The notes below the pieces were generated by a model, which did no database searches, had not been told where the DNA came from, and worked only from the letters and a program-made list of their open reading frames with translations. This document shows, in pieces, positions 23,468-61,985 of a stretch of 64,000 bases of DNA (positions are counted from its first letter, which is position 1; the number at the start of each line of letters is the position of its first letter). Origin of the DNA: Octopus vulgaris (Eukaryota). Made by a program: the position numbers and the translations under genes. The stretch is taken from NCBI GenBank assembly GCA_951406725.2, contig OX597832.1, forward strand, positions 66,588,001 through 66,652,000, in the 5' to 3' direction.

Positions 23468-24069
23468 TATTTACATTATTTACATTTGACGGATGTTTGT
23501 CCTCATCATGTTTGTTGTTAACACAGCTTTTCGTCTGATGTATCCTCCAGCCTTCATCAGGTGTCTTGGGGAAATTTCGAACCTAGGTTCTCATTTCTAA
23601 GGTATTTTTTGATGTTGTAGTTGTTGTTGTTGTTGTTGCTGTTGTTATTATTATTATTATTATTTTTATTATTATTATTATTATTATTATTATTAGTAGT
23701 AGTAGTAGTAGTAGTAGTAGTATTCAGGTCACTACCTGAAATCAAACTCGGAATCTTGGGGTTAGTAGTCCGCGCTCTTAACAACTACGCCATATGCCGC
23801 CCAAGATTTCGAGTTCGATTCCAGTCAGTTACCTGAATAATAATAATAATAATAATAATAATAATAATAATAATAATAATAATAATAACATCGAAAAATA
23901 CCTTAGGAATGAGAACCCAGGTTTAAAATTTCCCCAAGACACCTGATGAAGGCTGGAGGATATATCAGCCGAAACGTTGTGTTAACAACAAACGAGATGA
24001 GGACAAATATTAGTCAATTGTAAATAATGTAAATAATGTGCATAATTCCTCATCTCTTAAATATAGAAC
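23468..24069. mobile_element. Head-to-head inverted pair of a tRNA-headed, hammerhead-containing SINE-like element (probably PLE-mobilised)
   Basis: Minus copy 23468-23798 has a tRNA-like head (A box TGGCGTAGTTG, mutated B box), internal (AAT)n and a hammerhead. Plus copy 23800-24069 is 5'-truncated, keeps B box GAGTTCGATTCC, and has an extra 3' tail. Confidence 0.8.
23938..23983 (+). ncRNA. Minimal type-I hammerhead ribozyme
   Basis: GACAC-CTGATGA-A-GGCTG(gaggatatat)CAGCC-GAAA-C-G-T-T-GTGTT: stem I GACAC/GTGTT, stem II GGCTG/CAGCC, palindromic stem III AACGTT, predicted cut after 23978. A mutated copy lies on the minus strand at 23518-23565. Confidence 0.8.
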
Positions 24070-24757
24070 GCAGGCGACGTATTGTAAGCTTAAAGTTGAC
24101 CCGTGTATCAGCGTAAATGCCTTCCTCCAATCGCTGGGGAGTTGTGTCAGTGGATACTATCGATTACCAACTACTGCATTGAGTGCCTTCGATTCTCCTT
24201 TCCTTGTCCTTAAATATAACACATTTTCTTAACAATGTCATCTTCACCATAAACAGAGTCATGGCTTTGGTGTATGTTGGACAGCCTCTCTCTGTTTCCT
24301 TCAATTACTCCATTTACGGTCTCACAAACACATTTGCTTATACACATGCGGGTGCACACACACAAACACACACATATGCACACACACACGCACGGACACT
24401 CACACATATGTTTGTGTATATGTTCGTATGTATACAGTACTGTCTCCTACGACGGAAAGGCGTCCTGTGTAATTTTGCCAGACTTTTCTATTCTTCAAGA
24501 GTTCGGCTGATAATTTTTCATGAAGTAGGCTGATGTCTTTGCACTTTCTGCTCTCTTTCATTTTCCATCTTACTTTTTGTTATATTAACTAGTTTACATT
24601 TTCAAATCCACTGGCGCCATCTGCATTCAAATATTTGATCAATGTATAGAAACTTTCTCTTTCGAAACGTATCACTTGTGATGTTTGATTCCGATGTGCT
24701 TTCTTTTCTTTAGGAACAGCTTGATTACGATGCAATGGTTCTCATTCTTATATTAAA

Positions 24758-24998
24758 GAGTCATATTCGTAGTCATAAAGCGAGACAGATTATTGACAAC
24801 CATTCCCCTGGTGGTGGTGTTACACACCATACTAATCATATCCGTCAGGTATGTAGAAAGGAGAGTAATTCGGCGGGAGTTTGCATAGTTACATGCATAG
24901 GTACAATGTACATGCATAGTTATAACTACAGCCGGCTATTGCCGATAAAGTTTTTAGCTGCCAATTCTGTACAAGATATTGTAGATCTTTAGCAGTGA
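24758..24998 (+). mobile_element. Short RTE 3'-UTR copy flanked by an 18-bp TSD
   Basis: Reverse complement of 25925-26165; perfect direct repeat TCTCATTCTTATATTAAA at 24740-24757 and 24999-25016. Confidence 0.88.
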
Positions 24999-25848
24999 TC
25001 TCATTCTTATATTAAATCTGTTCTTACTAATAGCAAAATTACATATAAAATCATATATAATCATTCATCAGACATTTGAAATCATGCACATTGCCTGTGC
25101 TTTGTGCATAAGTTCTTCACTAAATTCAGTATTTAAAGTAATGTTTGCTTTTCTTTAACATTCCAAAACGTTTTAAATGGTTTATTTTCAGTGATATGCT
25201 TTTTATTTTCTATGGTCGATCTCCATAATTTTAGTGTTCCTAATATATTTTGTTTACGATACACCATTAACTATTTCAACAAGCGATATCTCCCGTACAT
25301 AAAATATATATTATTTTCATGTATTGAAAGTTTCATTAGTAAGAAGAGTCAATAGGGTCAGCGTGAACAATATTCGCCATATAATTTCTATAAAGCCATA
25401 CAAACATTTTACTTACATCTCTGGTTTTATTCTTCTTGTACAAGTGTTTGTCCGATCAACCAAAAAAATTAAAAAAAAGAGTCGATATGACAACATAGTA
25501 CTGTTGCGACCAACTCCTAATTTCAACTTCATTTGAGTGCTGATTGTCTATTCATACACAATCTATACTTCCGCAATGTATTGAGCCAATTAGAATGATA
25601 TACTACTCGGCAAACCATACAATTTTAGCTCCTTACAAACTGTGTGCGATGACTAACAAAGGCTTTTTCATGTACAACATCAATCACATTTTCAAAGAAT
25701 GCAAAAGAAAAAAATGAAAAAATAATTAAACTTACATTTTGAATTGAAAACACATTTGTTTCAAAAGTCTAATGTCAGACCAGACCATTAAAGACATAAA
25801 TATATACATATACACACATATATATATATATATATATATATATATATG

Positions 25849-59689: not shown

Positions 59690-60380
59690 TAAGAGAGAGA
59701 AAGACCAAAGTGTACGTACGCCGATATATGTCTATAAAAAAGAATGGGACAAGAAAGCAGCAGGCGACAACAAAACATCCAGAGAGATAGATGATACAAA
59801 AAGGGACAAGAAAAAACAAGGACGGGTCATTTGGAGTTTCCTTTCCTCTGTCGAATTCTAGATTATCGTTGCAGTTTCGGCTGGTTATACTCGAGATGGT
59901 TCCAATCTGGCCAGCCTCAACGAAAATCTAAGCTCAGAGCACCAGATTCCTTGGAAGAAAGCACCGAATGTACATGAAAACAAGGACGGAAAAAAACGGA
60001 AACGGTAAAAAACGGAAATACAAACGCAAAAGCAGGACATTAACAACAGGTGTCTTTCGACTAAGGGCGAATTAAATTAAGCCGGCGTGTATGGAAGTGA
60101 AGCCTTAGGCATAGACATAAGGGATGACAGGCATTGGAGGGAATATAGATTTTGCACGGATGGTAGTCGAACCAAGAAAGATGGGTCAGGCTTGACAGAA
60201 CACCGGTCACGTGGAAGGAGAAGAGAGAAGTAGAGTCAGGGGGTAGATGAATTAGGGAGGGACGAAAAATAAAGAAAAAGAAAAAAGGGACAGAGTGAAG
60301 TAAAAGAGGAGGGAAAGTGAGAATGAAGGGAAGGGGATGAAAGAAAGAAAGAGTGGAAAAATAAGAGAGTCAACCAAATG
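59690..60380. mobile_element. Unclassified purine-rich interspersed repeat between (TA)n tracts; partial second copy at 62035-62127
   Basis: AATGGGA.AAGAA.GCA.CAGGCGAC..CAAAACAT.CAGA..TAGATGATACAAAAGG..GAAAAAACAAGGA is present at both sites. Confidence 0.55.
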
Positions 60381-60447
60381 TATTATATATATATATATAT
60401 ATATATATATATATATATATATATATATATATATATATATATATATT

Positions 60448-61985
60448 TACAAACTGAGAAAATGGAGAAACATACTTAAATCAATCAATCATCAACCATC
60501 AGATAATACCCAATCAATACTTTATTACACCATTACATAACAGCAAAGACATTATGCATAATATATTGTAAATATAACTAGACATGGAAATATAAATATA
60601 AAATACAATTACATCATATCTGACAGCTGTTACGGCCGTGAGGACAAGTATGTCTCATTTAACCTATTAGCCATATAAAGCAGGTATAAATGAGACATTA
60701 ACAAGGATGTCTCACGGCCTCTTCAGAGAATTTAATATAAGTGTGAAAACAATTTACATATAAATATAAAAATATAAAATATAAAAATGTGTGCATAGAC
60801 ACTCATAATTCTACACATATATATATACACATTAATACAATAATACAATATAAACAAAATATATCAGTATACATTAACAAACACAGTTATTTTCCATATT
60901 GGACTCCTAGTTCCATAACTAACATCAATGAAATACATGTACAATCACATTTAAATTTAAAACAGACATATATATATATAAAAAACCCATTCCAGTTCAT
61001 TAAAATGTATAACCCTACAAAAAGTCAATAAAAATTAATATTAATATTAATAATAATAATAATAATAGTAATAATAACAACCATGATTATACCATGTACA
61101 GCAAGCAGACATCTACATATCAATAAGTCTAATTCATCTGTCCGCTTGATATTGATTATCCTAGATAGATTCGATTGGCTTATAGTTTTAAATTTGAATC
61201 ACAATCGAAATTTTACGGTTAGTTAGTCAAGAAACGCACATACGCACACGCACATCCACAGATCCAGCGCACATACATACATAATTATATGTATACACAC
61301 ACACATCCACCCACACACATACATAGCCACATACACAGCCAAATCATAAATAAATAAATAAATAAATAATATAAGAGGTATAATCGTAACTATATACATG
61401 GAAAAACAGAGAAACCTAACTGGATGCACATACATGCATGCAGACATCCAGCCCCCCCCCCAAAAAAGGACATCAAGGCCGCGGTATTAACTAAGAAGAT
61501 CCACTCACATATTTCCAAAAACATTAATTGCAAAGATACATATAATTATATCACGACATAGAATGTAATTTTTCATAAGGTACATAATTCATATGACACT
61601 GTATTTTCCATAGCCATAGTATTTTATAACTAAACGTCTACTAACTTAACCGCTATTTTATATTTCTATTTCCATGTCTAGTTATATTTACAATATATTA
61701 TGTATAATGTCTTTGCTGTTATGTAATGGTGTAATAAAGTATTGATTGGGTATTATCTGATGGTTGATGATTGATTGATTTAAGTATGTTTCTCCATTTT
61801 CTCATTTTGTATTATTAATTTACGGTAATATTTTTACCCTTGCCCACATAATGCAGTAGATGAATTAATTGCACCGCAATTTTTAACATTTATATATTAG
61901 TCTTGTTGGGTACCTCTCTAGCAGTATATTGGATATATGTTATCCCATGGTGGGTTGAATTTTCAACCCCTATCTCATTTCATAA
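60448..61985. mobile_element. Non-coding hammerhead-bearing element with 158-bp inverted arms, between (TA)n tracts (PLE-like)
   Basis: Arms 60448-60605 and 61654-61811 (3 mismatches seen); right arm followed by a ~170-nt tail; hammerhead just inside the left arm. Confidence 0.78.
60618..60730 (-). ncRNA. Type-I hammerhead ribozyme with long stem II and one core mutation (GAAA to GTAA)
   Basis: Minus strand: TCT-CTGAAGA-GGCCGTGAG...ATGTCTCATTTA..TAAATGAGACAT...CTCACGGCC-GTAA-CAGCTG-TC-AGA. Confidence 0.72.

Follow-up and report, generated by a model that had tools for sequence, protein, structure and literature searches.

What are the three inverted repeats with hammerhead ribozyme motifs that lie within a single 64,000-nucleotide stretch of the 2.8-Gb Octopus vulgaris genome (G000:C19:66588001-66652000; hereafter the window, in which microsatellites and long interspersed nuclear element (LINE) fragments are abundant)? 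A sequence-only reading had proposed that they represent three unrelated, non-autonomous and non-coding families sharing one design, an arm, a hammerhead and an inverted arm with a 3' tail, made by fold-back or template switching during integration of the kind used by Penelope-like elements (PLEs). Calling the window copies elements 1, 2 and 3 and their genomic relatives families 1, 2 and 3, we conclude with moderate confidence that all three are head-to-head inverted insertions bearing the end signature of PLEs, that elements 1 and 3 are PLE 3' ends and element 2 is a retrozyme likely mobilised by a Hydra-type PLE, and that the inversion likely arose by an ordered form of twin priming.

One line of evidence for this reading comes from the ends. 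Each family has two fixed 3' ends, an untailed end (A) and a tailed end (B), with the tail between them (~35, ~60 and ~175 nt, respectively), while 5' ends vary. We sorted inverted loci and solo copies by these ends. For family 2, in whose unit A lies at ~200 and B at ~263, 100 loci were fetched and 84 kept after dropping those with common 300-nt ends (of the 16 dropped, L194 did not overlap in coordinates; two C6 places from the list were left out). All 26 inverted loci in this sample paired one A with one B end, whereas the 58 others comprised 55 A ends, 2 B ends and 1 ending elsewhere (Fisher 1e-19). A pattern-only sample gave 18 A+B pairs among 18 inverted loci, the 42 others being 40 A and 2 B. 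Family 3 was sampled by pattern and by DNA match, 28 loci each with at least 2 in common: the former held 4 inverted loci, all A+B, and 24 solo copies (21 A, 3 B), the latter 7 A+B loci, 1 partial inverted locus and 18 A and 2 B solo copies, both solo B copies having an inverted A partner further out. The family-1 pattern sample, 29 loci from the first 2.7 Mb of C1, contained 18 inverted loci (14 A+B, 2 A+A, 2 B with another end) and solo copies ending at A (6), at B (3) or elsewhere (2), and a second, tail-selected sample of 30 loci yielded 13 A+B among 16 inverted loci. Fixed outer ends and tails with variable inner breakpoints were borne out in all three families, and the proposal of PLE-type integration was right.

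The arms themselves add to this. By hand count, copying of one arm from the other, in either direction, is impossible in 8/26 family-2 and 7/11 family-3 inverted loci, window elements 2 and 3 among them, since the A arm is the longer of the two yet lacks the tail. Minority alleles were common to the arms of one locus at 27 of 4,114 sites (0.66%), against 0.11% between loci, and the arms of one locus differed at 50 sites, ~12 of them from a single misalignment. Such sharing points to the same RNA or source locus for both arms, or to later conversion.

In the window, every element consists of a long minus-strand untailed copy joined head-to-head with a shorter plus-strand tailed copy, as follows:

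23468..23798, minus strand: long untailed arm of element 1 (A end; locus L031), with tRNA-like head, (AAT/AAC)n tract, pseudo-long terminal repeat (pLTR) body and decayed hammerhead.
23724..23798, minus strand: tRNA-like segment with A-box and B-box-like motifs; the arm starts at +1 of the segment.
23800..24039, plus strand: short arm of element 1, 5'-truncated within the tRNA-like segment.
23938..23983, plus strand: minimal type-I hammerhead motif of element 1 (scan 23943-23978, core from 23943), with a 2-nt palindromic stem III and triplet GUU.
24040..24069, plus strand: tail of element 1 (B end).
38485..38851, minus strand: long untailed arm of element 2 (A end, abutting (TA)n; locus L001), from 267 to ~200 of the 434-nt unit.
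38679..38754, minus strand: type-I hammerhead motif of element 2 (scan 38684-38747), with a long stem II, a 10-nt palindrome at stem III and triplet GUA.
38860..38994, plus strand: short arm of element 2, unit 65-200.
38995..39056, plus strand: ~60-nt tail of element 2 (B end), with a TA-rich repeat next.
60448..61664, minus strand: long untailed arm of element 3 (A end at (TA)n; locus L061), 3' untranslated region (UTR) and pLTR, 5'-truncated.
60615..60732, minus strand: type-I hammerhead motif of element 3 (scan 60622-60726), with a long stem II and a GAAA-to-GTAA core.
61654..61811, plus strand: short arm of element 3, overlapping the long arm by ~11 nt at the junction.
61812..61985, plus strand: ~175-nt tail of element 3 (B end), which in an intact relative runs into the 5' leader of the open reading frame (ORF).

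Much of what had been read from the letters here holds. All three places do have the inverted arms, by inverted-repeat and self-BLAST coordinates (23467-23667/23836-24036, 38485-38615/38865-38994 and 60448-60605/61654-61811), and self-BLAST of the window gave no cross-match among the elements, in keeping with their having no obvious common sequence. A descriptor scan found three type-I hammerhead motifs with a palindromic stem III in the window and none in 100 block shuffles, while a fourth match (25013-25071) was non-palindromic and unsupported. The extension does lie beyond the right arm in all three elements; this reflects the orientation of the window copies, and at other loci the tail is on either side. 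The layout in which a hammerhead sits between two arms did not survive. The motif lies inside both arms of element 1 (the left copy decayed, the right one with predicted cleavage after 23978) and only in the longer, minus-strand arm of elements 2 and 3, so that how far each arm reaches determines where the hammerhead falls. No PLE protein matched the window.

By the motifs of its relatives, element 3 is the 5'-truncated end of a Hydra-type coding PLE. Longer family-3 copies run into GIY-YIG and reverse transcriptase (RT) sequence; close relatives are frameshifted, and a copy 84% identical over the RT query (L128, G000:C5:142940800-142950700) has an open 960-aa frame, P0001, lying between two pLTR-and-tail units in a unit of ~5.6 kb. 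P0001 carries RWR (instead of RWK), DKT, CxCx5C, CxxC and CxH, with no CCHH and no cysteines within the core, and section 11 of PMC8557442 gives RW(K/R), DKT, a CxCx5C linker, CxxC and CxH as diagnostic of Hydra. The canonical hammerhead and the (TA)n target of that clade are likewise found in family 3, as are mollusc hosts. Size departs from the published tendency, which is not diagnostic: Hydra elements are described there as generally <3 kb, whereas the family-3 unit combines its ~5.6 kb with a 960-aa Asn-rich ORF and a long 3' UTR. Neptune, considered as a label, was dropped for Hydra on the motif list. For family 3, 83 homologues were found, mostly of ~700 aa, the nearest named ones from Argonauta hians, and one homologue has a weak Pfam RVT_1 match; a PDB sequence search with the family-3 protein found no match. 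In P0001, RT and endonuclease are separated by a long, Asn-rich insert resembling those known from Adineta Penelopes.

On sequence grounds, element 1 represents a Penelope/Poseidon-type 3' end. In each of the 12 copies chosen by their GIY-YIG end (L106-L117), the tRNA-like segment comes next (10 by BLAST, L107 and L115 by eye), and the body was matched in 10 of the 12, in the order tRNA-like segment, (AAT)n tract, body. In long copies the segment directly follows the Penelope ORF stop, within the 3' UTR. RT motifs were seen in 10 further copies picked on RT, RT and GIY-YIG pieces are contiguous with the family-1 end in decayed copies, and in L318, near-full-length and decayed, the tail runs in frame into the ORF N-terminus. 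It is this continuity of ORF, tRNA-like segment and body, together with the tail in frame with the ORF start, that identifies the element. The translations have CSC within the core and two downstream His, a feature of the Penelope/Poseidon clade, and the family combines a minimal hammerhead in the pLTR with a tail overlapping the ORF start; an intact ORF was absent from the 22 copies examined. Target duplications of at least 8 nt flank 17 of 27 family-1 A+B loci (control mean 0.3, maximum 2), and none was found at window element 1.

Most short family-1 copies begin at +1 of the tRNA-like segment. Among 47 arms that reach this head, 12 stop inside it, 30 at -20..+8 of +1 and 5 beyond (4 of them into the ORF), that is, 30 of the 35 arms passing +8 stop at -20..+8; 49 other arms end in the tract or body. 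TTTT is absent from 20 of 26 complete units, whereas 24% of random windows lack it, and in these old copies strict A-box and B-box patterns occur in 8/26 and 11/26 units. We give roughly even odds to the short copies being products of a short RNA polymerase III (Pol III) transcript mobilised in trans, that is, a putative Penelope-driven short interspersed nuclear element (SINE); the rival possibility is an RT stop or fold-back at the short hairpin at the tRNA-like +1. An exact family-1 22-mer has 5,899 matches in the genome, and a family-1 piece occurs in 5 of 60 stretches of 10 kb taken at fixed positions (a 600-kb random sample), which extrapolates to ~20,000 loci. ARAGORN found no tRNA gene in the window. 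The family-1 head may resemble tRNA-Arg, and it may correspond to an octopus SINE of Ohshima and Okada 1994. At L036, L042 and L048 the family-1 5' end is fused to an (AAT)n tail that belongs to the end of an unrelated repeat, which suggests joining via the common microsatellite.

Family 2 is of another kind. It is built of a 434-nt unit, with partial tandems up to ~2.4 units, and its longest stop-free frames are 72 codons in sense and 98 in antisense; tandem units of this size with a type-I hammerhead and no coding capacity place it, judged by its sequence, within the definition of non-LTR (long terminal repeat) retrozymes as given in the main text of PMC7229834. The exact family-2 36-mer matches 234 places in the genome, most copies have 95-99% identity to the reference unit, the hammerhead motif is intact in 61 of 71 motif copies, and that of element 2 is intact and of the majority form. 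The circular fold predicted for the monomer has a z of -4.5 in sense, yet -3.7 in antisense. No pile-up of 5' ends was seen at the hammerhead site in family-2 copies, and 17 of 38 solo copies are longer than one unit, which fits a circle and an uncleaved multimer equally.

The helper of family 2 is, with fair probability, a Hydra-type PLE, because family 2 resembles four Hydra-like families, as compared by eye, in its (TA)n target and in an A-end context that is CCATT...TTG|TA-like. Three routes to a parent similar in sequence were tried and abandoned: a divergent 74% piece returned only family-2 copies among 40 scored, a stem-III 14-mer gave 139 matches (8 new loci were checked, of which 6 belonged to family 2 and 2 were chance matches), and PLE ORFs beside family-2 copies proved to be separate insertions in the same (TA)n tracts. 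One such neighbour, at L190 ~520-1440 (G000:C5:125512900-125515900), is a second Hydra-like family beside a family-2 copy in one (TA)n tract, itself inverted with an untailed arm, GIY-YIG end, pLTR and tail. At L135, L142 and L160, 5'-truncated RT ORFs of other (TA)n-associated PLEs adjoin family-2 copies, with a long open frame in L142; these are putatively Neptune- or Naiad-like. By eye, the tails of families 2 (38995-39056) and 3 (61812-61985) each contain a short, fully paired hairpin located 8-13 nt ahead of the B end, and 10 nt of the family-2 tail are complementary to sequence upstream of A; both features are candidate start-site signals.

How would such ends arise? In twin priming of LINE-1 (L1), a second target nick primes a second cDNA, and an inversion joined by microhomology results. 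The L1 arms are non-overlapping parts of one RNA, whereas the two arms of the octopus insertions start at two fixed sites and represent the same 3' region. We infer an ordered variant in which the RT-endonuclease would cut both target strands, the first nick would prime cDNA at RNA site A, which alone could complete an insertion, and in some events the second nick would prime a second cDNA at site B of the same or a sister RNA, the two cDNA ends then being joined through a 2-11 nt overlap. The hammerhead would be a passenger in the pLTR and would not define the architecture. A+B pairing together with A-ended solo copies favours this order of events over fold-back. Twin priming agrees with the behaviour of Anolis Poseidon in vitro (Frangieh et al. 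2024, PMC11167929), where both strands are cut and extended and the tail is bounded by two internal RT start sites; the protein is a predicted dimer and hammerhead cleavage is dispensable, and the passages of that paper considered here do not assign the two starts to the two arms of a single inverted insertion. More tentatively, and to our minds with less probability than the reading above, a dimeric RT-endonuclease might prime A first and optionally B on the second strand, and so drive two parasites: family 2, as a circular-RNA retrozyme dependent on Hydra, and most family-1 copies (~20,000 loci), as a Pol III-transcribed SINE whose tRNA-like head lies in the 3' UTR of its own Penelope partner.

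Fold-back is the alternative that survives best, and we consider it unlikely. A cDNA primed at B would copy itself, the endonuclease would resolve the product at A, and later asymmetric deletion of the unstable palindrome centre would leave unequal arms, which could mimic the untemplatable ones. Self-priming was proposed in PMC3846280 and endonuclease (EN)-mediated resolution in PMC8557442, in the passages bearing on insertion structure. Symmetric palindromes at L181 and L240 are what fold-back predicts, family-1 junctions often fall at the short natural hairpin at the tRNA-like +1, the arms of one locus have a common haplotype, and the longer arm is A in 17 and B in 9 of 26 loci, a skew that is not significant. 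Fold-back requires B to be primed first, however, yet solo family-2 copies are 55 A to 2 B (binomial 2e-14), and symmetric deletion should have yielded solo B as often as solo A. Moreover, 6 family-2 B arms consist of tail only, ending at or before A, and most junction overlaps are just a few nt. With these and the untemplatable arms, the fold-back that the sequence-only reading had invoked is not favoured.

Besides the symmetric loci, several points weigh against ordered twin priming and the assignments made here. The overlap of the arms in sequence would require strand displacement or two RNA units. Frangieh et al. report, in the passages considered, no strand preference or difference in start site, although pairing within one event lay outside that study. 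The family-2 pattern is blind to solo B copies shorter than ~100 nt, and alike ends in L143/L145 and in L140/L186/L187 are possibly non-independent events. In family 1, the A+A loci and those pairing B with another end break the rule, and 3 solo B against 6 solo A copies do not establish the solo asymmetry. No autonomous element with sequence in common with family 2 was found. Pfam gave no match on P0001 and likewise none on the family-3 ORF pieces, and Rfam, run per element, reported no hammerhead at E<=10 on any of the three stretches; over the whole window, the 150 of 220 Rfam matches listed were microsatellite-type miRNA noise alone. For elements 1 and 2, the minimum-energy structures predicted differ from the active hammerhead fold and are no more stable than those of shuffles. 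The core of element 3 reads GTAA, against GAAA in 99 of 100 listed family copies, and by established hammerhead chemistry its ribozyme is likely dead.

A guild of three non-autonomous non-coding families with a dedicated arm-hammerhead-arm design is improbable. In favour of a guild, family 2 is a closed non-coding unit, and the majority of family-1 copies are short ones beginning at the tRNA-like head. Against this, families 1 and 3 run without a break into RT and GIY-YIG ORFs, non-inverted loci dominate (58/84 in family 2, 24/28 in the family-3 pattern sample), and the position of the hammerhead relative to the arms shifts with truncation. The guild is refuted for family 3 and as a claim of design; what is left of it is family 2 and possibly the short family-1 copies. 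In the same way, the statement that none of the elements encodes protein is right for the window copies and wrong for families 1 and 3, and the anticipated link to an autonomous PLE was found through coding copies for these two families and failed for family 2. That the elements are miniature inverted-repeat transposable elements (MITEs) or other DNA transposons with hammerhead-like motifs by chance is very improbable and as a terminal-inverted-repeat reading is refuted, for despite the inverted arms and the family-1 target duplications there are no symmetric repeats of fixed length, inner breakpoints and arm lengths vary widely, the tail is one-sided, tandem and solo copies dominate and RT parents exist.

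Three elements in 64 kb had been taken to imply very large numbers of genomic ribozymes. In the 600-kb random sample we counted 4 strict motifs, and 10 shuffles together gave 2; the window is ~7-fold denser than the sample (P ~0.009), a further point on the unfavourable side. The density was thus overstated; the sample extrapolates to ~19,000, with wide error. Hammerhead enrichment in inverted repeats was not seen: 0/4 sample motifs fall within inverted-repeat spans, small numbers though these are, 3 lying in other Hydra-like or PLE-like contexts and 1 beside small palindromes in (TA)n. At L358 ~1890-2285 (G000:C19:30000001-30010000), two adjacent ~130 bp palindromes in (TA)n accompany a minimal hammerhead-like motif, and a further minimal motif lies near 2598.

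The remaining inverted pairs in the window do not have this architecture. The pair 24754-25006 and 25922-26169 is 87% identical, the first copy flanked by a ~17 nt direct repeat and the second at the 3' end of a minus-strand LINE (~26100-28700); these are likely two copies of a single LINE end. Another 87% identical pair, of ~110 nt (32093-32200 and 33890-34001), has no hammerhead and no match in the fetched loci, and is possibly a set of old terminal inverted repeats. Opposite-strand RTE-like LINE pieces at 5453-6684 and 12733-13981 are 89% identical over 1.28 kb and ~6 kb apart.

The architecture as such is known. Inverted pLTR and tail have already been described for EN+ PLE insertions in the passages of Arkhipova et al. 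2013 (PMC3846280) and Craig et al. 2021 (PMC8557442) that treat them, which report a head-to-head inverted 5'-truncated copy with a tail at one end, 9-10 bp target duplications, a tail overlapping the ORF start and junction palindromes. The tails given there are 30-40 nt, whereas families 2 and 3 reach ~60 and ~175 nt, and those passages do not quantify the pairing of one A with one B or the A-only solo copies. Non-LTR retrozymes as outlined by Cervera and de la Pena 2020 (PMC7229834) and Li et al. 2026 (bioRxiv 10.64898/2026.07.22.740005) resemble family 2 in being 150-450-nt non-coding tandem type-I hammerhead units, with PLEs proposed as the mobilising partner. The word 'inverted' is absent from the main text of the former, and the argument of the latter is co-occurrence and pLTR similarity, whereas family 2 shows the PLE two-start-site signature directly; unlike published retrozymes, it has no sequence-similar parent that we could find and ~2.4 units at most. 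The schistosome SINE-like hammerhead repeats SM-alpha and Sj-alpha, as reviewed in PMC6765202, resemble family 1 in that a short repeat combines a Pol III-type promoter with a hammerhead downstream of it; they are tandem, whereas family 1 is dispersed, solo or inverted, and its head also occurs in a coding Penelope 3' UTR. The main text of the Octopus vulgaris repeat annotation PMC13282606 contains neither hammerhead nor retrozyme nor Hydra. 'Twin priming' as a term was not found in the PLE papers listed, nor was a SINE mobilised by Penelope, in searches of partial coverage with subscription papers mostly outside it; PLE consensus supplements, Repbase or Dfam may already hold these families.

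The value of the present analysis is a quantified end rule and two testable leads. The origin of the tandem and inverted structures of PLEs and of their tail is a named open question in the relevant section of PMC8557442, and A-then-B priming, if true, would account for the inverted pLTR as well as for the tail being one-sided. In the existing Poseidon in vitro system, the pairing of A with B and the restriction of solo copies to A can be put to a simple test. A two-start-site signature on a non-coding retrozyme supports PLE mobilisation by mechanism, beyond co-occurrence, and a SINE mobilised by a PLE rather than by a LINE, if true, would widen the definition of SINEs. For annotation of the octopus genome, elements of this kind should be labelled PLE ends, not MITEs.

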